From contig JAYFPO010000021.1 of assembly GCA_034927685.1 (NCBI GenBank), positions 17,299 to 41,298 on the forward strand: DNA of 24,000 nt, written 5' to 3'. Positions 2,897 to 22,969 of this stretch are shown here, in pieces. This DNA is from Oscillospiraceae bacterium. Lineage in GTDB: Bacteria; Bacillota; Clostridia; Oscillospirales; Oscillospiraceae. The translations under genes and the position numbers were made by a program. Below the pieces are notes generated by a model, which saw nothing but the letters and a program-made list of their open reading frames with translations, did no database searches and was not told where the DNA came from. Each line of letters begins with the position of its first letter. Within the stretch, counting starts at the first letter, position 1.

Positions 2897-2996
2897 TGAC
2901 AGGCTCCCCCTTTCTCGGATTGGATGTCCTTAGTTTACGACAGGATTGTTTCGCAATTCGGAAGGGAGGGTGAAGATTTTGTGAAAAATCATGGAA

Positions 2997-3036
2997 ACAC
3001 GGTCGTGCGGGCCGCTCCCGGTCCGCACGACCGTGT
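2997..3036 (-). terminator. Stem-loop terminator after the TIM-barrel::ligase gene
   Basis: Perfect 14-bp stem ACACGGTCGTGCGG (2997-3010) / CCGCACGACCGTGT (3023-3036), 21 nt downstream of the stop at 3058. The minus-strand T-run (TTTTT) is offset by about 7 nt, so efficiency is uncertain. Confidence 0.5.
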
Positions 3037-3057
3037 TTGATCGCTGATTTCCCCCGC

Positions 3058-5577
3058 TCAGGGGGTTTCGTTTCCCTTCGCGGTGTCGATGCCAGCCGCG
3101 TTTTCCAGATGCAGGCGCGCAATCGCATCCTCGCGCATCTTGTATTTCAGGATTTTCCCCGCGGCGTTCATGGGGAAAGCGTCCACAAACTCGATATACT
3201 TCGGCACCTTATGCCGCGCCATGCTGGCTTTGATGTAGTCGAGCAGCTCCTGCTCCGTGACGCTGCCGGACTGCTTCAGGATGACGCAGGCCATGGCCTC
3301 CTCGCCGTACTTTTTGTCCGGCACGCCGACCACCTGCACATCCCGGACCGCCGGATGGGTATAGATGAATTCCTCGATCTCCTTGGGGTAGATGTTCTCG
3401 CCGCCGCGGATAATCATATCCTTCAGGCGGCCCGTGATCCGGTAGTTGCCGTCCTCGTCCCGGCAGGCCAGGTCGCCGGAATGGAGCCAGCCCTCGCGGT
3501 CCACGGTGTCCCGCGTGGCCTCCGGCATTTTGTAGTAGCCCTTCATGGTGTTGTAGCCCCGGGAGCAGAACTCGCCGTTCACGCCCGCCGCCACCGCTTC
3601 CCCGGTCTCCGGGTCGATGACCTTACACTGGACATGCGGGAAGTCGTAGCCGACGGTCTCTGTGCGCAGCGCGAGCGGATCGTCCCAGGCGGACATGGTG
3701 CTGCCGGGCGCGGACTCCGTCTGGCCGTAGACGCTGACGATGCCGGTCATGTTCATCTCACTTGGCTGCGCGGCCCGGCGCATGAGCTCCGCCGGACAGC
3801 CGGAGCCGGCCATGATGCCCGTGCGCATGTGGGAAAAGTCGGTCTTCCGGTAGTCGGGATGGCTGAACATGGCGATGAACATGGTGGGCACGCCGTTGAA
3901 GCAGGTGATCCGCTCCTGGTTGACGCAGGCCAGCGACGACTTCGCGGAAAAATAGGGCAGCGGACAGAGCGTCGCGCCGTGGGTCATGCACGAGGTCATG
4001 GAGAGAACCATGCCGAAGCAGTGGAACATCGGCACCTGGATCATCATTCGGTCCGCCGTGGAGAGATCCATGCGGTCGCCGATGCACTTGCCATTGTTGA
4101 CCACGTTGTAGTGGGTCAGCATGACGCCCTTGGGGAAGCCGGTGGTGCCGGAGGTGTACTGCATATTGCAAACATCGTCCGCATGCACCCGCGCCGCCAT
4201 TCTGGCCACTTCCTCCCGGGGGACCAGATCCGCCCGCTCCATGGCCTCATCAAAGGTCAGGCAGCCGGGCTGCCGGAAGCCGACGGTGATGACGTTGCGG
4301 AGGAACGGCAGGCGCTTGCAGTGGAGCGGTGCGCCGGGCTTACTGCTCCCAATTTCCGGGCAGAGCTCGTTGATGGTCGCCCGGTAATCGGAGTCCAGAC
4401 AGGATTCGATCATGACGAGCGTGTGCGTGTCGGACTGCCGGAGCAGATACTCCGCCTCATGGATCTTATAGGCCGTGTTGACCGTCACCAGCACCGCGCC
4501 GATCTTCGTGGCGGCCCAGAAGGTCAGATACCACGCGGGCACGTTGGTGGCCCAGATGGCCACTTTGCCGCCGGCCCGGACGCCCATGGAGATGAGCGCG
4601 CGCGCGAAGGTATCCACATCCTCGCGGAACTCCTCATAGGTCCTCGTGTAGTCGAGCGTCGTATACTTGAAGGCATACTGGTCCGGGAACTCCTCCACCA
4701 TCCGGTCCAGCACCCGGGAAAAGGTCAGGTCGATCAGCTCATCCTTCTTCCAGACGTACCGGCCCGTGTGGGCGTGGTTGTCATACAGGTCCTTTTTCTT
4801 GCCGCGGGGATTGTCGAACCTGTGCATATAGTTCACGAAGTGCGGGAAAATAACGTCCTTTTCCTGTAGGTCCCCCATCCATTCCGGCTTCCACTCCAGC
4901 GAGATAAAGCCGTCATAGTTGATGGAGGAGAGGGCGCGCATCATCTCGGCAACCGGCAGATTGCCCTCGCCGATCAGGTTATAGGTGTCCCTGTCGTCGG
5001 AGTCCCGCAGGTGGACATGGCGCACATAGGCGCCGAGATTCTTGATCGTCGCGTCCGCGCTCTCGCCGTGGTCCCGGTAGGGGTGGTGCATATCCCAGAG
5101 GGCCGCGAGCTGGTCGCAGGCAAATTCGTCCATCAGCGCGCGGAGCCGCGCCGTGTCGGCGTAGATGCCGCTGGTCTTCAGCAGCAGCACCGGGCCCAGC
5201 GCCTCCGCCGCGGGCAGAAGCTCCCGCAGCGCCGCGCGGACCCGCGCCTCGTCGTCGCAGAGCGCGACGCATGACACGCAGGGTACCTGCAGATCGCGCG
5301 CCAGCTCCAGCAGATTCAGGAGCGTCCGCACCGCGTCCCCGTCCGCGGATACGTCGCAGGAGGTATCCAGGCAGGAAATCCGGATCTGCTTTTCCCGCAG
5401 CAGGCGGACCGTGGCCGCGGCGGTAACTTTGTGGAGCGGGCCGCCTCGCTCAAACCATTCCGGCCTTTTCTGAACATTATACAGCTCGACGCCGCCGAAG
5501 CGCATCTCCTGCGCGGTATCCAGCAGTTCTTCCCAACGCAGGGCCTCCCAGCCTCTTGTGGAAAAGGAGAGATTCAT
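3058..5577 (-). CDS. Fusion protein: xylose-isomerase-like TIM barrel (N-terminal) :: adenylate-forming acyl-CoA ligase (C-terminal)
   Basis: 839-aa ORF with GAGGAGG RBS. Its ATG overlaps the upstream stop (ATGA at 5574-5577). Residues 1-~250 resemble the AP_endonuc_2/sugar-phosphate-isomerase TIM barrel (HVHLRD, FISLEWK). Residues ~280-839 carry ligase motifs YTSGTTGFPKGVMLTH, VYGQTES, GRLKDMIIRGGENIYP and AAGKILK. Confidence 0.85.
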   Translation of the reverse strand: MNLSFSTRGWEALRWEELLDTAQEMRFGGVELYNVQKRPEWFERGGPLHKVTAAATVRLLREKQIRISCLDTSCDVSADGDAVRTLLNLLELARDLQVPCVSCVALCDDEARVRAALRELLPAAEALGPVLLLKTSGIYADTARLRALMDEFACDQLAALWDMHHPYRDHGESADATIKNLGAYVRHVHLRDSDDRDTYNLIGEGNLPVAEMMRALSSINYDGFISLEWKPEWMGDLQEKDVIFPHFVNYMHRFDNPRGKKKDLYDNHAHTGRYVWKKDELIDLTFSRVLDRMVEEFPDQYAFKYTTLDYTRTYEEFREDVDTFARALISMGVRAGGKVAIWATNVPAWYLTFWAATKIGAVLVTVNTAYKIHEAEYLLRQSDTHTLVMIESCLDSDYRATINELCPEIGSSKPGAPLHCKRLPFLRNVITVGFRQPGCLTFDEAMERADLVPREEVARMAARVHADDVCNMQYTSGTTGFPKGVMLTHYNVVNNGKCIGDRMDLSTADRMMIQVPMFHCFGMVLSMTSCMTHGATLCPLPYFSAKSSLACVNQERITCFNGVPTMFIAMFSHPDYRKTDFSHMRTGIMAGSGCPAELMRRAAQPSEMNMTGIVSVYGQTESAPGSTMSAWDDPLALRTETVGYDFPHVQCKVIDPETGEAVAAGVNGEFCSRGYNTMKGYYKMPEATRDTVDREGWLHSGDLACRDEDGNYRITGRLKDMIIRGGENIYPKEIEEFIYTHPAVRDVQVVGVPDKKYGEEAMACVILKQSGSVTEQELLDYIKASMARHKVPKYIEFVDAFPMNAAGKILKYKMREDAIARLHLENAAGIDTAKGNETP

Positions 5578-6992
5578 ACTTCCGCCTCCTCATAGACGAT
5601 TTTGTTGAGCGCGCTCAGGTAGGCCAGGATGCTGGCCCCCAGAATATCGGTGGAAATGCCGCGGCCGGAATAGAGCTTGCCGTTCGAGCGGAGCTTGACC
5701 ACGGTTTGGCCCATGGCCTCGCGGCCCTCGGTGACGGCCTGAATCTGGAAGTCGTCCAGCTCGTAGTGGCGGCCGGCGATCTGCTCGATGGCCAGGAACG
5801 CGGCGTCAATGGGGCCGTCGCCGACGGAGATGCCCTCCAGCACCCGATCCTGCCGGCGCAGCTTCATATGCGCCGTCGCGGTGATGATATTGCCGGTGTT
5901 GATGACGTAGCTCTCCATCTTATAGGTGGGCGGCACCTGTAGGGCCGCCGCGGCCACGATGGCGTCCAGCTCCTTGGAGCCGACCCGCTCCTTGCGGTCG
6001 GCGATCCGGCAAAACGCCTCGTAGACCTTGACGCCGTCCTCCTCGGAGAGATCATAGCCCAGCCGGGCCACGGCCTTCAGGACCGCGCTCATCTCGTCGT
6101 GGCTGGTCAGGGTCACGCTCTCGCCGCTCTCCTCCACGCCGTTGTCAAAGGGCGAATTCTTGCTGCGGTTCGTCTGGCACATCCAGACGATCTGGCTGAG
6201 AATGCGTTTCATCTCCGTCATGCGGACCGCGCAGCAGGCGTCGAATTTGTCCCCTTTGGCCGCCAGGACCCGGGCCACATTCTCCAGCGCCGCCGTACCC
6301 ACGGGATAGGAGGCCACCTTGACCTCCCCCGCCCCGCAGCGCACGGCCGCAATGGCGCAGGAATCGGCCATGGACAGCGTGTCGGCGCAGGAGACGCCCA
6401 GACAGACGCCCCGCAGCGCGGGCACGGCCGCGTAGAGCTTTTGCAGGAACGCCGCGAACTCATCGGGCAGCATGGCCCCGGCGGTGTCGCAGACCGTGAC
6501 GGTGGAGGCGCCTGCCTCGATGGCGGCCGAAACGGCCGCGTGCAGGAATTCCTCGTCGCTGCGGGTTGCGTCATCGGCCAGGAACTCCACGTCCCCGCAG
6601 CACGCCCGGCAGGCGGCAACGGTCTCGCGGATGGCCGAAAGCATCGCCTCCGGCTTTTTGTGGTGCAGGTATTCCATCTGCACGGGGCTGACCGGCGCCG
6701 CCACCTGAAGCCGGGGACACGCCGCCTCACGCAGGGCGTTCCAGGTCGTCTGCACGCTCTCCTCGGAAAGCTGCACCGGCACGGCCACGGCGCAATGCCG
6801 GACCGCCGCCGCCACGGACTTGACGAGCAGGCTGTCGATCTTCGGATTCTGAATGGTCTCCAGCTCGACGACGGACACGCCCAGCCGGTCCAACAGCTTG
6901 GAAAGCTCAATTTTCTCTTTAAAGGTCAGGGTAAAGCCGGCGGCTCTCCCCGTCTGTTTCATGGTGACGTCGCTGATTCTGATTTCGTTCAT
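5574..6992 (-). CDS. 2-isopropylmalate synthase-like protein with degenerate catalytic site and intact LeuA-type C-terminal regulatory domain
   Basis: 472 aa with AAGGAGAG RBS. The HMGL-like N-terminal half aligns to LeuA. DTTLRDGEQ is replaced by DVTMKQTGR and HxHNDxG by SCADTLS. DT.G (CDTAG) and E..DD..R (EFLADDATRS) are kept. The C-terminal GDGPIDAAFLAIEQI...GREAMGQTVVKLRSNGKLYSGRGISTDILGASILAYLSALNKI matches the LeuA dimerisation/regulatory domain. Confidence 0.8.
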   Translation of the reverse strand: MNEIRISDVTMKQTGRAAGFTLTFKEKIELSKLLDRLGVSVVELETIQNPKIDSLLVKSVAAAVRHCAVAVPVQLSEESVQTTWNALREAACPRLQVAAPVSPVQMEYLHHKKPEAMLSAIRETVAACRACCGDVEFLADDATRSDEEFLHAAVSAAIEAGASTVTVCDTAGAMLPDEFAAFLQKLYAAVPALRGVCLGVSCADTLSMADSCAIAAVRCGAGEVKVASYPVGTAALENVARVLAAKGDKFDACCAVRMTEMKRILSQIVWMCQTNRSKNSPFDNGVEESGESVTLTSHDEMSAVLKAVARLGYDLSEEDGVKVYEAFCRIADRKERVGSKELDAIVAAAALQVPPTYKMESYVINTGNIITATAHMKLRRQDRVLEGISVGDGPIDAAFLAIEQIAGRHYELDDFQIQAVTEGREAMGQTVVKLRSNGKLYSGRGISTDILGASILAYLSALNKIVYEEAEV

Positions 6993-7020
6993 CGCCGTAT
7001 CTCTCCTTTTTGTATGGAAT

Positions 7021-7296
7021 AAAAAAACGTCCCTGAGGCTATTTTGCCTCAGGGACGAACTTTCCTGTTCGCGGTACCACCCTGCTTATTCCCGCCGCGC
7101 GGGAATCCCTCTCGGACTCCGATAAGTCCATAGCCTGTAACGGGGCGGCCGGGTTCCATTACTCGCGGAGCTTTCACGGAACCGACTCGGGAAGCAGAAT
7201 GCAGCTCTCTTCGGTACCGGCTCGCACCACCCGCCGGCTCTCTGAAACGCGAACTGAGAACGCAAATTTCCGTCATCGTCTTTTGCAGTTTAGATT
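7021..7296 (-). promoter_or_regulatory. T-box riboswitch leader (specifier read as CUG, Leu; tentative)
   Basis: Read on the minus strand: K-turn GATGACGGAA...TTCCCGAGTC, AG bulge CAGAGAG (rc of 7238-7244), distal loop CGGGTGGTGCGA, F-box-like CCGTTAC. T-box core GGGTGGTACCGCG is the rc of 7070-7082. Terminator CGTCCCTGAGG/CCTCAGGGACG (7028-7057) is followed by T7 (7027-7021). The triplet next to the basal helix is CUG (rc of 7195-7197), followed by C rather than the usual purine. Confidence 0.85.
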
Positions 7297-7302
7297 TCTG
7301 TC

Positions 7303-7331
7303 ATTTAAGCACAGATTGGTCCGTTTGTCAA
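7303..7331 (-). promoter_or_regulatory. Sigma-A-type promoter for the Leu T-box operon
   Basis: Minus strand reads TTGACA (rc of 7326-7331), a 17-nt spacer, then TTAAAT (rc of 7303-7308), just upstream of the T-box Stem I. Confidence 0.5.
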
Positions 7332-7378
7332 CGGGTAATTTGAAGAAAAATTTGGAGGCGCGTTTCTGAAAAAAGGAT

Positions 7379-7407
7379 TTGACATTTTGGATGCGGCATG
7401 ATATAGT
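7379..7407 (+). promoter_or_regulatory. Sigma-A-type promoter for the Ile T-box unit
   Basis: TTGACA (7379-7384), a 17-nt spacer, then TATAGT (7402-7407). Divergent from the minus-strand promoter, with 47 bp between the two -35 hexamers. Confidence 0.55.
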
Positions 7408-7412
7408 TGGCC

Positions 7413-7689
7413 CAACATAAAAAAGGCTTTGACGAAGACGGTTGGATTCTCAAATGTTCAGAGAGCCGGTGGTTGGTGTGAACCGGTGATTTTGAGTCCT
7501 CAGACCTATCACTTCCGAGCTGGAGACCCGAACGGCCAAAGGCCAAGTAGATATCTCCCGTACGCCCGCGTTAAGGGATAGGACTTATCGGAGTCTGAAG
7601 TGGCGGCAGGAATGCCGCAAATTGAGTGGTACCGCGGGTTATGCAGTTTTTGCAGCTCGTCTCAAGAATATCTTGGGGCGAGCTTTTTT
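7413..7689 (+). promoter_or_regulatory. T-box riboswitch leader (specifier read as AUC, Ile)
   Basis: K-turn TTGACGAAG...CTTCCGAGC, AG bulge CAGAGAG (7459-7465), distal stem CCGG/CCGG with loop TGGTTGGTGTGAA. AUC (7508-7510) plus A lies directly 5' of the basal helix. T-box core GAGTGGTACCGCG is at 7624-7636. Terminator GCTCGTCTCAAG/CTTGGGGCGAGC (7655-7683) is followed by T6 (7684-7689). Confidence 0.9.
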
Positions 7690-7715
7690 GTCGCCCGGAA
7701 TCAGGAGGATTCACA

Positions 7716-9983
7716 ATGAAAGAACAGACCAGCAGCAGCCAGCTCATGGAGGTCGCCCTCCGGATCCGCGAAATGCGGGAGATCGACGGCTACACCGCCC
7801 AGGAGATGGCACAGAAAACAGAGGTCAGCACAGAGCTCTATCAGTCCTATGAGGACGGCCTCACCGATCTGCCCTTTACCTTTATTCACAAGTGCGCCAA
7901 AACCTTCGGCATTGAAATTGCCGACCTGCTGGAGGGGCAGAGCGCCCATCTCTCCTCCTATACCGTGACGCGCCGCGGCACGGGCAGCCAGACCGCCAAG
8001 GAAAACGGCATCTCCATTGTCAACCTGGCCCCGCGCTTCCGCCAGAAGCTGGCAGAGCCGTACTGGGTCACCTACGACTATGACAAGGAGCAGGAGCAGC
8101 GCCCCATCCACCAGACCACCCACGGCGGGCAGGAGTTCGACCTGATTCTCAGCGGCCGCCTCAAGGTGCAGATCGGCAGCCACACCGAGTTTCTGGAAGA
8201 GGGCGACAGCATTCTTTATAACTCCTCCATCCCCCACGGCATGATCGCGGTCGGCGGCACGAGCTGCCAGTTCTGCGCCGTGATTTTGCCGGGCGAGGAG
8301 GTCGAGGAGACGGCTGTCCGCCGGAGCCTGCTCCCCGAAAAGCGCGCCGAGCCCTACGTCTGTCAGGAGTTCGTCGACGCCGCGGAGAATGCCGACGGGA
8401 CGCTGAATTCCATCTATTTTAAAAACGAGGACACGTTCAACTTTGCCTTTGACATCGTCGACGCTCTTGGCAAAAAATACCCGAAAAAGCGGGCCATGCT
8501 CCACCTCGACAAGCATCAGGTCGAGCGGGATTTCTCCTTTGAGGACATGAAGAAGGAGTCCGCCCGGGCCGCCAACTACTTTAAGGCGCTCGGCATCCAG
8601 CGGGGCGACCGCGTCATGCTGGTCCTGAAGCGGCACTACCAATTCTGGTTTGCCATCCTGGGACTCCACAAGCTGGGCGCCATCGCCATTCCCGCCACCA
8701 ACCAGCTCCTCGAGCACGACTTCGTCTACCGCTTTGACGCAGCGGGCGTCAGCACCATTCTCTGCACTGCGGACGGCGATACCGCCGACTGTGTGGACGC
8801 GGCCGCGCAGCAGTGCCCCCAGCTCCATACGAAAATCCTGGTGGGCGGCAAGCGGGACGGCTGGCACGACTTCGACGCCGAGTGTCCCATGTACAGCAGT
8901 CACTTCCCCAGAACGGACGACAGCCCCTGCGGCGACGACCCCATGCTGATGTTCTTCACCTCCGGCACCACCGGCTACCCGAAGATCGCCACGCACAACT
9001 ACAAATATCCGCTCGGTCACTACATCACCGCCAAATACTGGCACTGCGTCTCCCCCAACGGTCTCCACTTCACCATCTCCGAAACCGGCTGGGGCAAAGC
9101 CCTCTGGGGCAAGCTATACGGACAGTGGCTCTGCGAGGGCGCGGTCTTTACCTACGATTTCGACCGGTTCGACGCCGTGGAGATCCTCCCGATGTTTGCG
9201 AAGTACCACATCACCACCTTCTGTGCGCCTCCCACCATGTACCGCATGATGATCCGGCAAGATCTCAGCGTGTACGATTTCAGTTCCCTGGACCACATCA
9301 CCACCGCGGGCGAGGCGCTGAATCCGGAGGTATACCGGCTCTTCGAGAAACAGACCGGCCTGCAAATCATGGAGGGCTACGGTCAGACCGAGCTGACGCT
9401 CACCATCGGCAACCTGATCGGCACGCAGCCCCGCCTTGGCTCCATGGGCAAGGCCATGCCGCTCTACGACATCCACCTGCTTGACCCGGACGGCAACCAC
9501 TGCGGCGCGGGCGCCAGCGGCGAAATCTGCGTGAAAACCGACGAGAAACTGCCCTGCGGCCTCTTTATGGGCTACTACCGCGACGAAAAGCGGACCAAAG
9601 ACGTCTGGCACGACGGCTACTACCACACCGGCGACGTGGCCTGGCGGGACGAGGACGGTTACTACTGGTATGTGGGGCGGGTGGACGACGTCATCAAGTC
9701 CTCCGGCTACCGGATCGGGCCTTTTGAGATTGAGAGCGTCATCACCGAGCTGCCCTATGTCCTCGAGTGCGGCGTCTCCGCCGCGCCGGATGAGGTCCGC
9801 GGGCAAGTCGTCAAGGCCAGCATCGTGCTGGTCCCGGGCACGGAACCCTCGGAAGCGCTGAAAAAAGAAATTCAGGATTACGTCAAGCACCACACCGCAC
9901 CCTATAAGTATCCGCGCATCGTGGTGTTCCGCGACGACCTGCCCAAGACCATCAGCGGCAAGGTCATCCGAAATCAGCTCTAA
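7716..9983 (+). CDS. Fusion protein: XRE-type HTH + cupin sensor domain :: medium-chain-type (ACSM-like) acyl-CoA synthetase, paralog A
   Basis: The track ORF begins at 7626 inside the T-box terminator. The ATG at 7716 (MKEQTSSS) has an AGGAGG RBS. Residues ~10-72 are an HTH_3-like domain and ~95-191 a cupin (HGGQEFDLILSG...GDSILYNSSIPHGM). Residues ~215-755 are a ligase (FNFAFDIVD, FFTSGTTGYPK, GYGQTE, GRVDDVIKSSGYRIGPFEIE, PKTISGKVIR). There is no stop or internal start at the domain junction. Confidence 0.9.
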   Translation: MKEQTSSSQLMEVALRIREMREIDGYTAQEMAQKTEVSTELYQSYEDGLTDLPFTFIHKCAKTFGIEIADLLEGQSAHLSSYTVTRRGTGSQTAKENGISIVNLAPRFRQKLAEPYWVTYDYDKEQEQRPIHQTTHGGQEFDLILSGRLKVQIGSHTEFLEEGDSILYNSSIPHGMIAVGGTSCQFCAVILPGEEVEETAVRRSLLPEKRAEPYVCQEFVDAAENADGTLNSIYFKNEDTFNFAFDIVDALGKKYPKKRAMLHLDKHQVERDFSFEDMKKESARAANYFKALGIQRGDRVMLVLKRHYQFWFAILGLHKLGAIAIPATNQLLEHDFVYRFDAAGVSTILCTADGDTADCVDAAAQQCPQLHTKILVGGKRDGWHDFDAECPMYSSHFPRTDDSPCGDDPMLMFFTSGTTGYPKIATHNYKYPLGHYITAKYWHCVSPNGLHFTISETGWGKALWGKLYGQWLCEGAVFTYDFDRFDAVEILPMFAKYHITTFCAPPTMYRMMIRQDLSVYDFSSLDHITTAGEALNPEVYRLFEKQTGLQIMEGYGQTELTLTIGNLIGTQPRLGSMGKAMPLYDIHLLDPDGNHCGAGASGEICVKTDEKLPCGLFMGYYRDEKRTKDVWHDGYYHTGDVAWRDEDGYYWYVGRVDDVIKSSGYRIGPFEIESVITELPYVLECGVSAAPDEVRGQVVKASIVLVPGTEPSEALKKEIQDYVKHHTAPYKYPRIVVFRDDLPKTISGKVIRNQL

Positions 9984-9991
9984 AATTTTAA

Positions 9992-10020
9992 TTGACAACT
10001 TCATATTTGCGTGCTATGAT
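9992..10020 (+). promoter_or_regulatory. Sigma-A-type promoter for the Val T-box unit
   Basis: TTGACA (9992-9997), a 17-nt spacer, then TATGAT (10015-10020). It is preceded by the AT palindrome TAAAATTTTA (9981-9990), which includes the stop codon of paralog A. Confidence 0.55.
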
Positions 10021-10026
10021 TCTTTG

Positions 10027-10310
10027 CAATAAAGGCTTTGACGGAGAGGGCCGGATACATCCCGTATCTCAGAGAAATGGCGGTTGGTGCGAGCCATGGA
10101 TACGCGTACCCGGTTTGTAGCTCCCGAGCCGGAGAGAAGAACGCGAAAGCCAGTAGACCTCTCCCGTGTCAGCCGCGTCAGAGCTTAGGGCTTATTGGAG
10201 CCCAATGAGGGGTGTTCGCTGTAAGACGGACACAATTTGAGTGGTACCGCGGGTTGCATTCGCAGCTCGTCTCAAAGAATCATTTCTTTGAGACGAGCTG
10301 TTTGTTTTTG
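10027..10310 (+). promoter_or_regulatory. T-box riboswitch leader (specifier read as GUA, Val)
   Basis: K-turn TTGACGGAG...CTCCCGAGC, AG bulge CAGAGAA (10071-10077), distal stem ATGGC/GCCAT with loop GGTTGGTGCGA. The 7-nt 3' specifier-loop side is TTTGTAG, with GUA at 10118-10120 followed by G. T-box core GAGTGGTACCGCG is at 10240-10252. A perfect 17-bp terminator CAGCTCGTCTCAAAGAA/TTCTTTGAGACGAGCTG (10264-10301) is followed by TTTGTTTTT. Confidence 0.9.
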
Positions 10311-10335
10311 TCTCAAAAACGAAGGAGATCGCCCT

Positions 10336-12633
10336 ATGCAAGAACAGAACATCACAGGCCTCGAATACAAAATCCGCGAAATGGCGGGCCGTATCCGCGA
10401 GCTGCGGGAGATCACCGGCCTCACTGTCCCGGAAATGGCCGCGCGCACCGGCGTCACCGAGGCGGAATACCTCCTGTGCGAAAACGGCGAGCGCGACCTC
10501 AACATCGCCTTCCTTTACCGCTGCGCCCTGAGCTTCGGCGTCGACGTGACGGACCTGATCGAGGGCCAGAGCCCCAAACTCCGCTCCTACACCCTGACCA
10601 GGGCCGGCGCCGGCCAGAAAATCGAACAGGCGCACCGGATGACCTACTACAATCTGGCCGCCGACTTCCAGGACCGCGTGGCGCTGCCGCTCTATGTCGT
10701 CATCCAGCACAGCAAGGAGGCCGAGCACGAGGACATCGAGCTGACCACGCACGACGGGCAGGAATGCGACCTCGTCGTCTCCGGCCATATGAAGGTCCAG
10801 ATCGGCGAGCATACGGAAATCCTTCACGCCGGCGACAGCGTCTATTACGATTCCTCCACGCCGCACGGCATGATCGCCGTGGACGGCCAGGACTGCTGCT
10901 TCTATGCCATCGTGCTGAACCCGGCCGAAACGCCCGCTCCCATCGGCGAACGGCCCGCCGAAAAGGCGCTTCCGGACCGCGACTCCCCGGAAAAGGACGA
11001 AGAGAGCCGGATTTATCAGGACTACGTCATCCCCACGGAGGAAGACGGCCGACTGACGAAGATCGCCTTTCAAAACGAGGACACCTTCAACTTTGCCTTC
11101 GACGTGGTGGACGCCCTCGGCCAGAAGAAGCCGAACAAGCTCTGTATGCTGCACGTCTCCGGGGACGGCACCGAGCGCCGCTTCACCTTTGCGGATATGA
11201 AAAAAGAGTCCGCCCGGGCCGCCAACTACTTCAAATCCCTCGGCATCCGGCAGGGCGACCGGGTGATGCTGGTTCTCAAGCGCCACTGGCAGTTCTGGCC
11301 CGCCATTCTGGGCCTGCACAAGCTGGGCGCCATCGCGATTCCCGCCACCAATCAGCTCCAGACCCACGACTTTTCCTACCGCTTCGACGCCGCGGACGTT
11401 TCCGCCATTCTCTGCACCGCCGACGGCCAGACCGCCGACTGCGTGGAAGAAGCCGCCGCGGAACGCCCGCAGGTCAGAACGAAAATTCTGGTGGGCGGCA
11501 GCCGGAAGGGCTGGCACGACTTCGATGAGGAGTATACCCTCTATAGCAGCCACTTTCTCCGCGCGGAGGACGCCCCCTGCGGCGACGACCCCATGCTGAT
11601 GTTCTTCACCTCCGGCACCTCGGGCTACCCGAAGCTGGCGGCGCACAACTATAAATACCCGCTCGGACACTTCATCACGGCCAAATACTGGCAGCGCGTC
11701 GACCCCGAAGGTCTGCATCTGACGATCTCCGACACCGGCTGGGCCAAGGCTCTCTGGGGCAAGCTCTATGGCCAGTGGCTCTGCGAGGGCGCAACCTTTG
11801 TCTACGACTTCGACCGCTTCGACGCCGAGAAGATTCTCCCGATGTTCGCGAAATACCACATCACCACCTTCTGTGCGCCGCCCACCATGTACCGGATGCT
11901 GATTAAGTGCGACCTCAGCCGGTTCGACCTCTCCTCCGTCGAGCATGCCTCCATCGCGGGCGAGGCGCTGAACCCCGAGGTGTTCCGCCAGTTCTACAAG
12001 GCCACGGGGCTGCGGATCATGGAGGGCTTCGGCCAGTCCGAATCCACGCTCATCATCGGCAACCTGGCCGGCGAAAAGCACAAGATCGGTTCGATGGGCA
12101 AGCCGGTGCCGCTCTATGACGTCTGTCTGCTGACCCCGGAGGGCGACGAAGCCGCCACCGGCGAGAACGGCGAAATCTGCGTCAACCTTGCAAACGGCCT
12201 GCCATGCGGCCTCAGCTACGGCTATGACGGCAGCCCGGACATCACCGCCCAGACCTGGAGGAACGGGTTCTACCACACCGGAGACCTGGCCTGGAAGGAT
12301 GAGGACGGCTTCTACTGGTACGTCGGCCGGGCCGACGACGTCATCAAGTCCTCGGGCTACCGCATCGGGCCATTTGAGATTGAAAACGTCATCATGGAGC
12401 TGCCCTATGTGCTCGAGTGCGGCGTCTCCGCCGCGCCGGACGAGGTCCGCGGCCAGGTGGTCAAGGCCAGCATCGTGCTGGTCCAGGGCACAGAGGGGAC
12501 CGACGCGCTCAAGAAGGAAATTCAGAGCTACGTCAAGGCCCACACAGCCCCCTACAAATACCCCCGCATTGTGGAATTCCGGGATGAACTCCCCAAGACC
12601 ACCAGCGGCAAGATTATCAGAAAGCAGTTGTGA
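10336..12633 (+). CDS. Fusion protein: XRE-type HTH + cupin sensor domain :: ACSM-like acyl-CoA synthetase, paralog B
   Basis: The track ORF begins at 10237 within the T-box. The ATG at 10336 (MQEQNITG) follows AAGGAG. It has the same three-domain architecture and ligase motifs as paralog A (FFTSGTSGYPK, GFGQSE, GRADDVIKSSGYRIGPFEIE, PKTTSGKIIR). Confidence 0.9.
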   Translation: MQEQNITGLEYKIREMAGRIRELREITGLTVPEMAARTGVTEAEYLLCENGERDLNIAFLYRCALSFGVDVTDLIEGQSPKLRSYTLTRAGAGQKIEQAHRMTYYNLAADFQDRVALPLYVVIQHSKEAEHEDIELTTHDGQECDLVVSGHMKVQIGEHTEILHAGDSVYYDSSTPHGMIAVDGQDCCFYAIVLNPAETPAPIGERPAEKALPDRDSPEKDEESRIYQDYVIPTEEDGRLTKIAFQNEDTFNFAFDVVDALGQKKPNKLCMLHVSGDGTERRFTFADMKKESARAANYFKSLGIRQGDRVMLVLKRHWQFWPAILGLHKLGAIAIPATNQLQTHDFSYRFDAADVSAILCTADGQTADCVEEAAAERPQVRTKILVGGSRKGWHDFDEEYTLYSSHFLRAEDAPCGDDPMLMFFTSGTSGYPKLAAHNYKYPLGHFITAKYWQRVDPEGLHLTISDTGWAKALWGKLYGQWLCEGATFVYDFDRFDAEKILPMFAKYHITTFCAPPTMYRMLIKCDLSRFDLSSVEHASIAGEALNPEVFRQFYKATGLRIMEGFGQSESTLIIGNLAGEKHKIGSMGKPVPLYDVCLLTPEGDEAATGENGEICVNLANGLPCGLSYGYDGSPDITAQTWRNGFYHTGDLAWKDEDGFYWYVGRADDVIKSSGYRIGPFEIENVIMELPYVLECGVSAAPDEVRGQVVKASIVLVQGTEGTDALKKEIQSYVKAHTAPYKYPRIVEFRDELPKTTSGKIIRKQL

Positions 12634-12637
12634 CACC

Positions 12638-13327
12638 ATGGAACCAAAACGCCTGACTCTGTTTGCCGGACACTACGGCAGCGGGAAAACCAATATTGCG
12701 GTCAATTACGCCGTCTATTTAAGGCGGCAGGGGAAGTCCGTGACCATCGCCGATCTGGACATCGTAAACCCCTACTTCCGCACCAAGGACAGCGCCGCGC
12801 TGCTGGAGCAGCTCGGCATCTCGCTGATCTGCTCGCAGTTCGCCAACAGCAACCTGGATATGCCCGCCATGCCCAAGGAGGCCTACGAACTGGTGGACGA
12901 CCGGCAGGAATACGGCGTGCTGGACATCGGCGGCGACGACCGCGGCGCGCTGGCGCTCGGCCGGTACACCCCGGCGATTCTGGAGGAAAACAACTACGAG
13001 ATGCTGTTCGTCATCAACCGTTCCCGCCCCCTGACCAGAACGCCGGAAGACACAATGGACGTGCTGCGGGAAATTGAGACCGCCTGTCGCCTGCCCTTCA
13101 CGGGCATCGTCAACAACACGAATCTGGGCCGCCAAACCACCGCGGAGGATGTGCTCCGCAGCCGGGACTACGCGGAGGAAATCTCCCGCGTCTCCGGCCT
13201 GCCGCTCAGAATGACCACCGTCAACCACCCGCTGCAACAAGCGCTGGAAGAAGATATCCCGAATCTGTTCCCGCTCCATCTGCAGGAGCAGTACTATGAA
13301 ATCAGAATGGAGGAAACCCATGGCTAA
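12638..13327 (+). CDS. P-loop NTPase (MinD/ParA/CooC-like SIMIBI class), unknown role
   Basis: The ATG at 12638 lies 4 nt after the paralog B stop. The longer track ORF (12188) is an out-of-frame overlap. Walker A FAGHYGSGKTN, then DLDIVNPYF and a Walker-B-like LDIGGDDRG. The 3' end overlaps the next gene by 8 nt. Confidence 0.7.
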   Translation: MEPKRLTLFAGHYGSGKTNIAVNYAVYLRRQGKSVTIADLDIVNPYFRTKDSAALLEQLGISLICSQFANSNLDMPAMPKEAYELVDDRQEYGVLDIGGDDRGALALGRYTPAILEENNYEMLFVINRSRPLTRTPEDTMDVLREIETACRLPFTGIVNNTNLGRQTTAEDVLRSRDYAEEISRVSGLPLRMTTVNHPLQQALEEDIPNLFPLHLQEQYYEIRMEETHG

Positions 13328-13526
13328 GCTGACATTTCGGGAAGAATTATGCAAGGGCTGCGGCCTCTGCGTAAATGCCTGTCCAAAGGGCATTCTCACG
13401 CTCTCCCGGACCAGACTCAATCAGAAGGGGCTCTCGCCCGTAGAACTGACCCAGCCCGACCTGTGCATCGGCTGCGCGTTCTGCGCCACCATGTGCCCGG
13501 ACTGCGTCATCACGGTAGAAAAATAG
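13320..13526 (+). CDS. 2-oxoacid:ferredoxin oxidoreductase delta subunit (2x[4Fe-4S] ferredoxin)
   Basis: 68 aa starting at the ATG at 13320 (GGAGGA RBS). Two CxxCxxCxxxCP motifs are present (CKGCGLCVNACP, CIGCAFCATMCP). Confidence 0.85.
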   Translation: MAKLTFREELCKGCGLCVNACPKGILTLSRTRLNQKGLSPVELTQPDLCIGCAFCATMCPDCVITVEK

Positions 13527-13541
13527 GAAAGGAGCACGTTC

Positions 13542-14600
<1,059 letters not shown>

Positions 14601-14602
14601 GT

Positions 14603-15340
14603 ATGGTAGTATTTGAAAAACCAAAGGCGTTAACCGACGCTGTTCTGCACTACTGCCCCGGCTGCACCCACGGCATCGTCCACCGTTTGGTGGCGGAGGC
14701 CATTGACGAGCTGGGCATCGAAGGAAAGACCATCGGCATCGCCCCCGTCGGCTGCGCCGTGCTGGCCTACAACTATTTCACCTGCGACATGCTGGAGGCC
14801 GCCCATGGCAGAGCGCCCGCCGTCGCCACCGGCGTCAAGCGCTCCCTGCCCGACCATGTGGTCTTCACCTATCAGGGCGACGGCGACCTGGCCTCCATCG
14901 GCATGTGCGAGACCGTACACAGCGCCGCCCGCGGCGAAAACATCACCATTATCTTCATCAACAACGCGATCTATGGCATGACCGGCGGCCAAATGGCCCC
15001 CACCTCCCTGGTGGGGCAGGTCACGCAGACCTCTCCCTACGGCCGCGACGCCGCCACGCAGGGCTATCCCATCCGCGTCTGCGAAATGCTCAGCGAGCTG
15101 GACGGCCCCTCCTATCTGGAGCGCGTCACCGTCAACAGCGTCAAAAACGTCAAAAATGCCAAGAAGGCGATCAAAAAGGCCTTCCAGAATCAGCTCGACG
15201 GCAAGGGCTTCTCGCTGGTCGAGGTTCTTTCCTCCTGCCCCACCAACTGGGGCCTCACGCCGCAGAAGGCGCTCGAGTGGATCGACGAGAAGATGATTCC
15301 CTACTATCCGCTTGGCGTTTACCGGGACAAGGAGGGTTAA
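14603..15340 (+). CDS. 2-oxoacid:ferredoxin oxidoreductase beta subunit (TPP-binding)
   Basis: Start at ATG 14603 (MVVFEKPK), 2 nt after the alpha stop. The longer track ORF overlaps alpha. Cys motif HYCPGCTHG and TPP motif GDGDLASIG...[11 protein letters not shown]. Confidence 0.9.
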
Positions 15341-15343
15341 GCC

Positions 15344-15883
15344 ATGGCTGAACATCAAATCGTAATCGCGGGCTTCGGCGGACAGGGTCTGCTGTTCTCC
15401 GGCAAGGTGCTGGCCTACGCCGGCCTCATGGAGGACCGCCAGATCAGCTGGCTGCCGTCCTACGGCCCCGAAATGCGCGGCGGCACCGCCAACTGCAATG
15501 TCATCCTCAGCGACAGCCCCGTCGGCTCCCCCATCGTCGACCACCCCGACATTCTGATGGTCATGAACGCCCCGTCCCTCGACAAATACGAGGACGCGGT
15601 GCGGCCCGGCGGCATGATCTTCCTGGACTCCACCCTGATCGGCCGGAAGGTCAACCGGTCCGACGTCACCGCCTGCTACATTCCCGCCACGCAGATGGCG
15701 AACGACATGGGCGCGCCCGCGCTGGCCAATATGATTCTGCTGGGCGCGCTGGTGCGGCACACCGCCTGCGTCTCCGACGAGATGCTGGAGGCCGGACTGC
15801 GGAAGGTCGTCCCCGCCCGGAAGGCCGACATGATCGACCTGAACCTCAAGGCCCTGCTGGCAGGAAAGGATTTCTCGGAATGA
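15344..15883 (+). CDS. 2-oxoacid:ferredoxin oxidoreductase gamma subunit
   Basis: 179 aa. VIAGFGGQGLLFSGKVLA and SYGPEMRGGTANC are typical of the gamma subunit/domain. The start lies 3 nt after the beta stop. Confidence 0.9.
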   Translation: MAEHQIVIAGFGGQGLLFSGKVLAYAGLMEDRQISWLPSYGPEMRGGTANCNVILSDSPVGSPIVDHPDILMVMNAPSLDKYEDAVRPGGMIFLDSTLIGRKVNRSDVTACYIPATQMANDMGAPALANMILLGALVRHTACVSDEMLEAGLRKVVPARKADMIDLNLKALLAGKDFSE

Positions 15884-16665
15884 AAATTTCCTGCATCCAG
15901 ATGGATATGCAGCTTGGCCTTCCCGATGAAAACTTCGGGAAGGCCGCCCGGCTGATCGAAGCCGCCATGGCGGAGGCGCCCGACGTGATCGTGCTGCCTG
16001 AGACGTGGAACGTGGGCTTTTTCCCGAAGGATGCCCTCGCGTCCCTCTGCGACCGGGACGGCGCGCGGGTCCGGACTGAGCTGGGTACGCTGGCAAAAAA
16101 ACACGGGGTCAATCTCGTGGCCGGCAGCGTCGCCAACCTGCGGGGCGACAAGGTATACAATACCGCCCTGGTCTTTGACCGCGGCGGCGCCTGCGTCGCC
16201 GCCTACGACAAGACGCACCTCTTCACCCCCCTGGGCGAGGACCGGTTCTTTACCCCCGGCGACCACCTGTGCAAGTTTACGCTGGACGGCGTCCCCTGCG
16301 GCCTCATCATCTGCTACGACATCCGGTTCCCGGAGCTGACGCGCACCATGGCCCTCAGCGGCATGGACCTGATGTTCGTGGTATCCCAGTGGCCGAAGGT
16401 GCGGATTTCCCACCTGCGGGCGCTGACCACGGCCCGCGCCATTGAAAACCAGATGTTCCTCTGCTGCTGCAACTCCTGCGGCACGGCGGGCAAGACCGTC
16501 TACGGCGGCGCCTCCGCGATTCTGGACCCCTGGGGCGAAACTCTGGCGCTGGCGGGCGAAGGCGAGGAAATTCTCTCCGCCGACTGCGACTTCTCCATCG
16601 TAACCCACATCCGCGAGACCATCAATGTCTTTGCAGACCGGAAAAGCGGCCTGTACCAGCTATAA
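15880..16665 (+). CDS. Carbon-nitrogen hydrolase (nitrilase superfamily; omega-amidase/YafV-like)
   Basis: 261 aa. The Glu-Lys-Cys triad contexts are present (LPETWN, YDKTHLF, IICYDIRFPE). The ATG overlaps the gamma subunit stop (ATGA at 15880-15883). Confidence 0.85.
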   Translation: MKISCIQMDMQLGLPDENFGKAARLIEAAMAEAPDVIVLPETWNVGFFPKDALASLCDRDGARVRTELGTLAKKHGVNLVAGSVANLRGDKVYNTALVFDRGGACVAAYDKTHLFTPLGEDRFFTPGDHLCKFTLDGVPCGLIICYDIRFPELTRTMALSGMDLMFVVSQWPKVRISHLRALTTARAIENQMFLCCCNSCGTAGKTVYGGASAILDPWGETLALAGEGEEILSADCDFSIVTHIRETINVFADRKSGLYQL

Positions 16666-16682
16666 GAAAGAAGGAACTTACC

Positions 16683-17771
16683 ATGTCCTACCATTTTCCC
16701 GTCACCAGAACCACAAGCCCCAAGCCCCGTCCCGAGGATGTGAGCAAGCTGGGCTTTGCCAAATACTTCACGGACCACATGTTCGTCATGGAGTACGACG
16801 AGGGCCAGGGTTGGCACGACGGCCGCGTGGTCCCGCACGCGCCGTTTCTGATCGAGCCGGCCTCCGCCGTGCTGCATTATGCGCAGATGATGTTCGAGGG
16901 TATGAAGGCCTACCGCCGCCCCGACGGCACGATCCAGCTCTTCCGCCCCGACATGAACATCGCCCGGATGAAGCGCACCTGCGAGCGGATGTGCATGCCG
17001 GAGATTCCCGGCGATCTGTTCCTGGCCGCCGTCGAAGCCGTCCTCCACGAGGACCGCGACTGGGTCCCCTCCGAGCCAGGCACCGCCATGTATATCCGGC
17101 CCTTCCTGTTCGGCGACGAGGTCTCCTTCTCCGTCCTGCCGGCGAAGCATTATAAGTTCCTCATCATTCTGAGCCCGACCGGCTCCTACTACGCAGCGAA
17201 CAACGGCGGCCTGGTCACCACCCGGATCTTCGTCGAGGACGAATACATCCGCGCCGCGCCCGGCGGCACCGGCTACGCCAAGGTCGGCGGCAACTACGGC
17301 GGCGGCATGCGCGCCTCCCAGAAAGCCCTGCAATACCAGTGCAAGGACGTGCTGTGGCTGGACGCCATGGAGCACAAGTACGTCGAGGAAATCGGCACCT
17401 CCAACGCCTTCTTCCGCATCGCGGACGAGGTCATCACCGCCCCGCTGGACAGCGGCACGATTCTGCCCGGCATCACGCGCAACTCCGTCATTCAGCTGTT
17501 AAAAAGCTGGGGCGTCCGGATCTCCGAGCGCAGGCTCTCGATTGACGACGTCATGGCCGCCTCGAAAGACGGCAGTCTGCAGGAGGTCTTCGCCTCCGGC
17601 ACCGCCGCGGTCATCTCCCCGATCGGCTTTTTGAGCTACCTCGACGAAGATCATCCGGTCGCCGACACCAAGGTCGGCCCCATCGCCCAGAAGCTCTACG
17701 ACACGCTCTACGGCATCCAAACCGGCACCCTGCCCGACACGATGGGCTGGACCTATCCGCTCGGTTTTTGA
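16683..17771 (+). CDS. ilvE: Branched-chain amino acid aminotransferase (fold-type IV, long form)
   Basis: 362 aa. MFEGMKAYR, IRPFLFG, the PLP-lysine context GGTGYAKVGGNYG, GTSNAFF, ILPGITR and GTAAVISPI are typical of YbgE/YwaA-type BCATs. Confidence 0.9.
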   Translation: MSYHFPVTRTTSPKPRPEDVSKLGFAKYFTDHMFVMEYDEGQGWHDGRVVPHAPFLIEPASAVLHYAQMMFEGMKAYRRPDGTIQLFRPDMNIARMKRTCERMCMPEIPGDLFLAAVEAVLHEDRDWVPSEPGTAMYIRPFLFGDEVSFSVLPAKHYKFLIILSPTGSYYAANNGGLVTTRIFVEDEYIRAAPGGTGYAKVGGNYGGGMRASQKALQYQCKDVLWLDAMEHKYVEEIGTSNAFFRIADEVITAPLDSGTILPGITRNSVIQLLKSWGVRISERRLSIDDVMAASKDGSLQEVFASGTAAVISPIGFLSYLDEDHPVADTKVGPIAQKLYDTLYGIQTGTLPDTMGWTYPLGF

Positions 17772-17881
17772 GTTCTGATTTTCCTCCGGAACAGCGCCCG
17801 CCGCATTCCGGAAAGGATGTCGAATGGCCCCTTCCCGACTGTGCGGACCTTGCGAACCGTGCGCATGCGAAACTAGGAAAA

Positions 17882-17919
17882 CGCCCCCATGAGCTGCCCT
17901 GCGGCAGTTCATGGGGGCG
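17882..17919. terminator. Bidirectional stem-loop terminator between ilvE and the convergent symporter gene
   Basis: CGCCCCCATGAGCTGCC (17882-17898) pairs with GGCAGTTCATGGGGGCG (17903-17919) with one G-U pair. On the minus strand it is followed by TTTTCC. The plus-strand T tract is weak (TCGTATTTC). Confidence 0.65.
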
Positions 17920-17968
17920 TCGTATTTCAGAAAAAGCGCGGCGCTTTCGCACGGAGCAGGAGTTTCCG

Positions 17969-19459: not shown

Positions 19460-19497
19460 GAAGACACCTCCATACTATTCGCAAAATGACTTGGGTC

Positions 19498-19842
19498 CTA
19501 TCCGCGGTCCTTTTTTTTAGTTGCCTCCAGCTCTCCGTCCGCTTCCAGACTCATGTGCCGGAAGCATTTGTCCAGAAGGATGGAGACCGCGACCGCAGTA
19601 AGCACGCAGACCACAACGATGGCAAAGTACCACTGCGGAATTCCCAGAATATAGATATAATTGCTCGGGTCGCCTCCGCCGATCACAAAGACGCAGAAGA
19701 GCATCGCTGCCGCGAAAACCACAAAGATCACGCAGCAGAAAAGAAATTCTCTCCTACAAACTTGAAAGCGCGGGTCAATATCGACGTCTTTTACATCATA
19801 GTCTCTGCTCTGCGGGTCAATTTTTTTCTTTACGTCGCTCAT
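19498..19842 (-). CDS. YhdT-like (DUF997) small membrane protein, the usual partner of PanF-type symporters
   Basis: The track ORF starts at TTG 19848. The ATG at 19842 sits 7 nt after AGGAGGG. It has two hydrophobic helices and lies immediately upstream of the symporter, as with yhdT-panF in enterobacteria. Confidence 0.65.
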   Translation of the reverse strand: MSDVKKKIDPQSRDYDVKDVDIDPRFQVCRREFLFCCVIFVVFAAAMLFCVFVIGGGDPSNYIYILGIPQWYFAIVVVCVLTAVAVSILLDKCFRHMSLEADGELEATKKKDRG

Positions 19843-19854
19843 AATCAATCCCTC

Positions 19855-21129: not shown

Positions 21130-21132
21130 GGT

Positions 21133-22731: not shown

Positions 22732-22969
22732 TACGATCGCCTCCAATTCTACAGTCCGGTCCGGCGAATCAGGCGTTTTCCCATCACAGGCGTCATGCCG
22801 GACATCGTTGCTTTGCAGCTTGGGACAAGGTCTTATGCGGCGTTAAGGACTCCGCGCGCTGGAATCCTGGCCGATTTACCTCGCTCCGCAGGAAAGAATC
22901 CGGGTCCCTTCTGGTTTCACCATAGCACAAGTCCTCCCAAATATGGTAGTTCTTATTTTGATAGAGGTT

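Follow-up and report, generated by a model that had tools for sequence, protein, structure and literature searches.

We studied a 24,000-nucleotide stretch of DNA from an Oscillospiraceae bacterium (GenBank assembly GCA_034927685.1, contig JAYFPO010000021.1, positions 17,299 to 41,298 of the forward strand), which we refer to as the window and number from its first letter. It carries three T-box leaders with isoleucine (Ile), valine (Val) and leucine (Leu) codons in their specifier loops and, behind them, three acyl-CoA ligases, a four-subunit 2-oxoacid:ferredoxin oxidoreductase (OFOR), the branched-chain aminotransferase IlvE and several accessory genes (Table 1). Proteins were assigned with Pfam, NCBIfam (using its equivalog and subfamily cut-offs), PDB sequence matches and AlphaFold2 models. 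T-boxes were searched with the Rfam model RF00230, over the whole window at the gathering score of 93 bits and then more permissively over positions 6900-10400, and a simple scan for terminators and promoters covered positions 2800-18200. No tRNA genes were found in the window.

Three T-box leaders and the genes behind them

An initial annotation, made from the letters and their open reading frames, had described three T-box leaders with intrinsic terminators, Ile, Val and Leu specifiers and a UGGU bulge in each. These claims held up: RF00230 matched the Leu, Ile and Val leaders at 98.9, 90.2 and 76.6 bits, respectively, each match overlapping a strong terminator, and reading the leaders confirmed UGGU as the T-box bulge of all three. 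The matches are full-length (model positions 1-219); those of the Ile and Val leaders lie under the curated Rfam cut-off of 93 bits and far beyond chance. Each leader shows the expected T-box anatomy, with a Stem I that has a K-turn at its base, a codon in the specifier loop and the distal AGAGA/GGUG motif, and the T-box sequence (A/G)GUGGUACCGCG is present in 3/3 leaders. Aligned to the Rfam model, the leaders show CUG+C (Leu), AUC+A (Ile) and GUA+G (Val) as the triplet ahead of the basal Stem I helix plus the next base. The positions given earlier for the AUC and CUG triplets were right, and the GUA codon occupies 10117-10119 instead of 10118-10120. The single core sequence ascribed to all leaders, GGUGGUACCGCG, is true of the Leu leader only, the Ile and Val leaders reading AGUGGUACCGCG. 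Finally, the description of one distinct ligase under each leader applies as it stands to Ile and Val; under the Leu leader, a LeuA-like gene comes first and the ligase second.

The terminators of the leaders are the three top-ranked terminator-like hairpins in the scanned region, each followed by a T-run. Near-consensus promoters lie ahead of the Ile and Val leaders, and each of the three leaders has either a promoter or a divergent intergenic region. We detected no terminator between the stop codon of the Ile ligase (9983) and the Val leader in the 2800-18200 scan, so transcripts from the Ile leader would run into the Val switch. Weak matches to the Rfam family mir-4524 on both strands at 10263-10300 were traced to the palindromic hairpin of the Val terminator and do not represent a separate RNA.

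Behind the Val leader, the gene content is as first described, from the Val ligase through a P-loop NTPase, the four OFOR subunits and a carbon-nitrogen (CN) hydrolase to IlvE, with neighboring genes overlapping or no more than 17 nucleotides apart. On the opposite strand, the stop codon of the LeuA-like gene overlaps the start of the fusion-ligase gene by 4 nucleotides. Minus-strand genes downstream, at 17969-22746, were considered as members of the system and set aside, as they are without counterpart in related loci and are probably unrelated; they converge on the Val operon and comprise a sodium:solute symporter (SSF) with its DUF997 partner, an SDH_alpha-like gene and an amidohydrolase (Amidohydro_3, D-aminoacylase-like).

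Table 1. Features of the T-box-controlled locus, in window coordinates, with the matches on which each assignment rests (bits, and cut-off after "vs").
Feature	Coordinates	Strand	Evidence
TIM barrel-ligase fusion, 839 residues	3058-5577	-	Pfam AP_endonuc_2, AMP-binding, AMP-binding_C
LeuA-like protein, putative pseudoenzyme, 472 residues	5574-6992	-	degenerate HMGL-like barrel and intact LeuA_dimer regulatory domain (Pfam)
Leu leader terminator	7028-7057	-	12-bp stem, then T7; overlaps 3' end of T-box match
Leu T-box leader	7048-7285	-	RF00230 98.9 bits, above gathering score 93; specifier CUG, reverse complement of 7195-7197
Ile leader promoter-like site	7379-7407	+	TTGACA-17-TATAGT, TG extension
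Ile T-box leader	7420-7667	+	RF00230 90.2 bits, E 1.4e-19; specifier AUC at 7508-7510
Ile leader intrinsic terminator	7654-7684	+	overlaps 3' end of T-box match
HTH-cupin-acyl-CoA synthetase, Ile clade, 755 residues	7716-9983	+	Pfam; MbcS top NCBIfam model, 414 bits; clade 1
Val leader promoter-like site	9992-10020	+	TTGACA-17-TATGAT
Val T-box leader	10029-10277	+	RF00230 76.6 bits, E 4.3e-16; specifier GUA at 10117-10119
Val leader intrinsic terminator	10262-10301	+	overlaps 3' end of T-box match
HTH-cupin-acyl-CoA synthetase, Val clade, 765 residues	10336-12633	+	Pfam; MbcS 407 bits; 3ETC 596 bits; clade 2
P-loop NTPase, SIMIBI-type, 229 residues	12638-13327	+	weak CbiA/ParA Pfam match
OFOR delta, 2x[4Fe-4S] ferredoxin	13296-13526	+	Pfam Fer4_7, Fer4
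OFOR alpha, VorB-named subfamily	13542-14600	+	NF005507 532.6 bits vs 399; POR_N and PFOR_II
OFOR beta, thiamine pyrophosphate-binding	14603-15340	+	Pfam TPP_enzyme_C; 2-oxoacid:ferredoxin oxidoreductase beta models
OFOR gamma	15344-15883	+	Pfam POR
CN hydrolase, Nit2/omega-amidase branch	15880-16665	+	Pfam CN_hydrolase; PDB 3P8K 169 bits
IlvE branched-chain aminotransferase	16683-17771	+	NF009897 446.8 bits vs 307; TIGR01123 360 vs 250

Specifier codons and gene order in related loci

To follow these leaders through evolution we scanned one genome per GTDB species for relatives of the window, which yielded at least 586 matching stretches, and took the best 80 of them (L001-L080) as the comparative set. 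These loci come from Faecousia, Acutalibacteraceae, Oscillospiraceae and other Clostridia metagenome-assembled genomes (MAGs), chiefly gut and rumen Oscillospirales, with ruminants, horses and the human gut as hosts; the window proteins were mapped onto them for synteny, and tblastn matches were used for gaps. The Val ligase of the window has a 100% identical counterpart in an Oscillospiraceae MAG, on a contig of 45,986 bp. Reading the specifiers by regular expression proved unreliable, a strict pattern leaving 30 leaders unparsed or misparsed and a lenient one giving many false readings. Instead, a Stem-I covariance model based on 27 leaders was run over all loci; it returned 168 full-length matches, in which we read the codon at a constant distance from the model's 3' end.

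The specifier read AUC in all leaders that precede Ile-type ligases (60/60), GUA (47) or GUC (17) in the 64 leaders of Val-type ligases, and CUG (24), CUC (18) or CUU (1) in the 43 leaders ahead of LeuA-like genes. The codon column keeps its amino acid in 167/167 salvage leaders, in accord with the Ile, Val and Leu assignments made for the window, and changes only between synonymous codons (GUA/GUC; CUG/CUC/CUU). Such synonymous variation without a change of amino acid is the behavior predicted for a functional specifier. The 168th leader (L074:965-4665), the sole T-box in the 80 loci that is untied to salvage genes, reads UUC (Phe) and precedes pheS/pheT, and therefore serves as an internal positive control of the specifier read-out. 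Stem I itself covaries: 97.5% of cells were paired, compared with 29-43% when the partners were slid, in an alignment that was fitted to the model and so somewhat favors structure, and changes on both sides were seen in 12/15 Stem I pairs. We also compared window position 7511, the base 3' of the Ile specifier, with its equivalents in the 80 loci. The base 3' of a T-box specifier is usually described as a conserved purine; here it is C in 28/60 Ile leaders and in 6/43 Leu leaders, the Leu leader of the window being among the latter.

The same units recur throughout the set: a T-box followed by the Ile ligase; a T-box followed by the Val ligase, the P-loop gene, OFOR (delta, alpha, beta, gamma), in some cases the CN hydrolase, and IlvE; and a T-box followed by the LeuA-like gene and the TIM-barrel-ligase. 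The Leu unit is mobile, being found divergent upstream, on the same strand upstream or downstream of ilvE, and the linkage of the modules has been kept through such rearrangements in dozens of genomes among the 80 mapped loci. All three units have a leader of their own in 32 loci, the window included. The Val leader is absent from 10 loci, where one Ile leader stands ahead of both ligases and OFOR, and three loci (L062, L078 and L036) lack T-boxes altogether. L062 and L078 have all their genes in the same orientation, arranged as LeuA-like, TIM-ligase, Ile ligase, Val ligase, CN hydrolase, IlvE, P-loop, OFOR. In one further genome the Leu pair (L084:7726-11938) lies ~355 kb from the Ile/Val/OFOR cluster and has kept its CUG T-box; it adjoins molybdenum hydroxylase-type genes (Ald_Xan_dh_C/MoCoBD, FAD_binding_5, Fer2). 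A glycosyltransferase gene (GT2/GtrA) and an NAGPA (phosphodiester glycosidase) gene flank the Leu module of the window at 896-2896 (minus strand), and the same pair stands a few kb from the distant Leu module, at L084:1-1294. The sequences flanking L033 and L042 contained one more degenerate LeuA-like gene and no ilv or leu genes.

The genome with the distant Leu pair (JGI 3300001784, a 1.94-Mb contig; L082:15797-20702, also L081) carries a fourth T-box (97.6 bits) directly 3' of ilvE. Its specifier is UAC (tyrosine, Tyr), and it is followed by a 545-residue AMP-forming ligase, a sodium:solute symporter and an IorA-type subunit, IorA being a subunit of indolepyruvate:ferredoxin oxidoreductase (IOR). 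Judged by its predicted genes, this Tyr module follows the same plan for an aromatic acid, and a module that joins a Tyr switch, a ligase and IOR strengthens the biosynthetic reading of the branched-chain locus. An archaeal precedent exists in Methanococcus maripaludis, which has an aryl-acid/IOR route to aromatic amino acids (PMC4162585).

Ligases, their added domains and the shared enzymes

The Ile and Val ligases are paralogues (64% identity) with the adenylate-forming ANL fold, matching Pfam AMP-binding at 194 bits each and its C-terminal domain at 74 bits. Their nearest solved structure is PDB 3ETC, MacsMa of Methanosarcina acetivorans, an enzyme that prefers 2-methylbutyrate (PMC10455477). 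A set of 144 such ligases separated into two clades, with 72-73% identity within and 63% between them, and the clades match the specifiers without exception: clade 1 stands solely behind Ile specifiers, and clade 2 solely behind Val specifiers or directly 3' of an Ile-clade gene in a shared operon. Seven alignment columns discriminate the clades at ≥95%. Six of them fall in the N-terminal helix-turn-helix (HTH)-cupin module (Val-ligase residues 61, 80, 96, 99, 102 and 119), and the single one in the catalytic domain follows the GW of TGW(G/A)K, where the Ile clade shares a Gly with MacsMa and the Val clade has Ala. By analogy with acetyl-CoA synthetase, this residue may line the acyl pocket. 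The pairing of the smaller residue (Gly) with the larger acid is suggestive. We propose the Ile-clade enzyme as a candidate 2-methylbutyrate-CoA ligase and the Val-clade enzyme as a candidate isobutyrate-CoA ligase.

The top NCBIfam model of both enzymes is MbcS, a short-chain acyl-CoA synthetase of Staphylococcus aureus that supplies primers in support of branched-chain fatty acid synthesis (PMC10026030). Going by that published role, the ligases might mainly provide branched acyl-CoA primers for membrane fatty acids, with the T-boxes reporting a scarcity of primers derived from branched-chain amino acids (BCAAs). We consider this unlikely, as it would leave unexplained why a VOR-type OFOR and IlvE stand behind the same Val leader, why each ligase has its own amino-acid-specific leader and why a Tyr-ligase-IOR module exists. 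Primer supply and amino acid salvage are, nonetheless, not mutually exclusive.

The HTH-cupin module makes up the first ~245 residues of both the Ile and the Val ligase. Its AlphaFold2 model (pLDDT 78.7) is closest to the XRE-cupin regulator 1Y9Q and to HppE, HEPD, MPnS and Psf4, and the cupin residues His139, Glu143 and His177 are invariant. Together with matches to the XRE-type Pfam families HTH_19, HTH_3 and HTH_31, the likeness to 1Y9Q would be expected if the ligases were bifunctional, BirA-like enzyme-repressors that control transcription of the locus. This we hold to be improbable: the Pfam matches fall under the Pfam cut-offs, the HTH region is acidic in 144/144 ligases (net charge -1 to -10), no inverted repeats were found at the promoters of the locus, and HppE, HEPD and MPnS, enzymes with an HTH-like-plus-cupin fold, are equally good structural matches. 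To our knowledge, enzymes of the HppE, HEPD and MPnS type do not bind DNA. Since the HTH is acidic and the promoters are devoid of inverted repeats, a DNA-binding role is judged unlikely, and we favor a metal- or ligand-binding sensor as the predicted function of the module.

The Leu module is built differently. Its first protein misses the LeuA equivalog model (303 bits against a cut-off of 532) and is named by NCBI only as an 'alpha-isopropylmalate synthase regulatory domain-containing protein'. In a HMMER alignment with Listeria and Neisseria LeuA, the catalytic motif RDGEQ is replaced by KQTGR and HCH by SCA (HxH to SxA). Among 52 LeuA-like orthologues, the Asp is present in 0/52, the first His in 1/52 and the second His in 0/52; these positions vary freely, and the metal ligands are missing in ~51/52. 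Mean conservation is higher in the LeuA_dimer domain (0.70) than in the barrel (0.50). By these residues, the LeuA-like protein appears to be either a conserved pseudoenzyme or a protein adapted to a new purpose, and its partner is always the TIM-ligase; the two genes are paired in 51 loci, where their tblastn matches are separated by a median of 5 nucleotides. In the partner protein, a xylose-isomerase-like TIM barrel spans residues 1 to ~270, is less conserved than the ligase domain (0.52 versus 0.77) and has weak sequence matches to solved barrels, e.g., MJ1311. The ligase domain comes nearest to PRK12583, a 'fatty acid CoA ligase family' (677 bits, cut-off 832). From its context, the fusion probably activates isovalerate, making it a candidate isovalerate-CoA ligase; a literature search for an isovalerate-CoA ligase or a YngI link returned nothing usable.

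The enzymes encoded after the Val ligase fit the two later steps of a route from acid to amino acid. The OFOR has the layout of a four-subunit VOR, with delta, alpha, beta and gamma on adjacent genes and an alpha subunit of the VorB-named subfamily, and IlvE passes the equivalog cut-offs of NF009897 and TIGR01123. The P-loop gene lies directly upstream of OFOR in the relatives and is named 'hypothetical protein' where the source names it. A NifH-like, ATP-driven electron pump for the uphill carboxylation was considered for its product and rejected, because the protein has no conserved cysteines, neither of the two of such a pump being kept, and its AlphaFold2 model (pLDDT 80.7) resembles only generic SIMIBI NTPases (SRP54, FtsY and HypB; TM ~0.55). 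That it acts as an OFOR maturation factor is a guess. The CN hydrolase shows its family fold clearly, matches 3P8K first among PDB entries, then Nit2 (2W1V) and Nit3 (1F89), and misses the Nit2/YafV equivalog (PRK10438, 115.6 bits against 249). It adjoins an IlvE of the window type in 6 loci. Two types of IlvE occur in the 80 loci: one, 66-82% identical to that of the window, is always preceded by the CN hydrolase, and the other, at ~47-53%, is without the hydrolase and is the commoner one in the relatives. By analogy with MtnU/MtnE, we assume that an omega-amidase which removes 2-oxoglutaramate after glutamine-dependent transamination would make the last step irreversible.

A putative salvage route and its relation to known systems

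It has been known for about sixty years that rumen and gut anaerobes need or use isobutyrate, 2-methylbutyrate and isovalerate for Val, Ile and Leu, and the genes have been poorly assigned. A T-box allows read-through while its cognate tRNA is uncharged, acid activation by AMP-forming ligases is in essence irreversible, and OFORs are reversible. In the rumen, isovalerate is converted to Leu, 2-methylbutyrate to Ile and isobutyrate to Val (PMC7356843). We consider it likely that these genes form a salvage regulon for the synthesis of Ile, Val and Leu out of branched short-chain fatty acids, which are abundant in the gut and rumen. In the proposed route the branched acid becomes an acyl-CoA, then a 2-oxoacid and finally the amino acid, and each part of the proposal that is open to a computational test gave it support.

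According to this proposal, an uncharged tRNA that matches the specifier and the bulge would bind to the leader and stabilize the antiterminator, letting RNA polymerase enter the genes. The Ile leader would turn on the 2-methylbutyrate-CoA ligase; the Val leader, the isobutyrate-CoA ligase, the P-loop accessory protein, the four-subunit VOR-type OFOR, the omega-amidase-like hydrolase and IlvE; and the Leu leader, the dead LeuA homologue and the TIM-barrel-ligase, which is the probable ligase for isovalerate. The AMP-forming ligases would spend ATP to form the acyl-CoA, OFOR running in reverse would combine acyl-CoA, CO2 and reduced ferredoxin into the 2-oxoacid, and IlvE would aminate it. The CN hydrolase may pull the transamination forward by destroying the 2-oxo-amide by-product. 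The additions to the ligases could act as allosteric sensors on the committed step, the LeuA regulatory domain in trans for Leu and the acidic HTH-cupin in fused form for Ile and Val.

The opposite direction, in which BCAAs are oxidized to acyl-CoAs by IlvE and OFOR and the ligases work backwards or have some other use, has in its favor that many fermenters are known to run such OFORs and IlvE oxidatively. Catabolism conflicts, however, with a T-box that switches genes on when the amino acid is scarce and with ligases that are effectively irreversible, and a phosphotransacylase/kinase or an ADP-forming synthetase is absent from the locus. We regard a catabolic operon as highly improbable, and the combination of AMP-forming ligases with T-box (starvation) control argues for assimilation and not degradation.

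Several observations weigh against the salvage proposal. Both HTH-cupin ligases miss the MbcS equivalog cut-off of 850 by a wide span (414 and 407 bits); going by these scores they are related to MbcS and are not its orthologues. The nearest solved structures of the OFOR alpha subunit, 1YD7 and 8YS5, belong to a generic Pyrococcus furiosus 2-ketoacid enzyme and a 2-oxoglutarate enzyme, and since neither substrate range nor direction can be read from an OFOR sequence, the VOR assignment is a prediction. As the initial annotation had cautioned, OFOR and IlvE lie in the window behind the Val leader only; under starvation for Ile or Leu alone, their supply would have to come from read-through, basal expression or further copies of OFOR and IlvE. 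The 10 loci without a Val leader get around this limit, with a single Ile leader for everything. Last, the ligase of the Leu unit shares only 25% identity with those for Ile and Val and belongs to a different family, and neither NCBIfam nor sequence comparison found a characterized close relative; it is the weakest link of the route. With a dead LeuA, a TIM barrel and an ACSF2/FadD-like ligase whose partner domains are without assigned roles, the Leu module could act on another Leu-related acid or at another step. This is a minor possibility in our estimate, set against the Leu-codon T-box in 43/43 leaders, the usual linkage to the VOR/IlvE cluster, the known acceptance of 2-oxoisocaproate by VOR-type enzymes and the standing of isovalerate as a rumen precursor of Leu (PMC7356843).

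More tentatively, we suggest that each ATP-spending ligase has its own end-product sensor, with tRNA charging read at transcription and a free metabolite read at the enzyme. The dead LeuA would then be a regulatory subunit in trans, and the HTH-cupin, derived from XRE-cupin proteins and provided with an invariant His/Glu/His site and clade-specific residues, would sense the amino acid or the 2-oxoacid; together with the Tyr module, these might define a general family of modules that turn acids into amino acids under tRNA control in gut Oscillospirales. We hold this wider model to be possible and no stronger than that.

The locus offers a concrete and widespread gene set (at least 586 stretches) with a built-in label, as the RNA switch names the amino acid served by the ligase, and it makes an old physiological question directly testable. 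With branched acids available, genomes without ilv and leu genes may escape BCAA auxotrophy, which matters for predictions of cross-feeding in gut communities, and a count of leuA could wrongly include the dead LeuA homologue when auxotrophy is predicted. The findings are also relevant to isoacid supplementation in ruminant nutrition. The dead LeuA, the HTH-cupin, the TIM barrel and the P-loop protein are candidate regulatory or maturation factors.

In a literature search we found neither T-box control of acyl-CoA ligases or OFORs nor this cluster, and T-box catalogues may mention them. Known BCAA T-boxes include the Leu T-box of the Bacillus subtilis ilv-leu operon and those ahead of aminoacyl-tRNA synthetase and BCAA transporter genes. 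The locus shares with these Firmicute regulons the RNA family RF00230, the terminator/antiterminator logic and the Ile, Val and Leu specifiers; it differs in what is controlled, namely acid-CoA ligases, of which each specifier has its own paralogue, together with a ferredoxin-dependent OFOR and IlvE, in place of de novo ilv/leu genes, a synthetase or a transporter. Rumen reductive carboxylation and the aryl-acid/IOR route of M. maripaludis have the same overall chemistry as proposed here (PMC7356843, PMC4162585), whereas the genes of the locus are clustered, its ligases are paralogue-specific, its expression is predicted to be gated by tRNA charging, and its hosts are Oscillospirales of the gut and rumen. 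MacsMa and MbcS, both characterized enzymes that act on branched C4-C5 acids, are homologous to the catalytic domains of the Ile and Val ligases, which add the ~245-residue HTH-cupin, fall into two specialized clades and stand behind T-boxes. The LeuA-like protein has the HMGL-like and LeuA_dimer architecture of LeuA with well-conserved regulatory motifs, but lacks the Arg and Asp of RDGEQ and the His residues of HxH, and its partner is the TIM-barrel-ligase instead of leuBCD. Similarly, the module on the ligases has the HTH-like-plus-cupin two-domain fold of the HppE and HEPD enzymes and of 1Y9Q, but is here fused to an acyl-CoA synthetase and found in strict anaerobes. The parts are thus of known kinds, and what is new is their assembly into a tRNA-gated, paralogue-specific salvage route with sensor-like additions.

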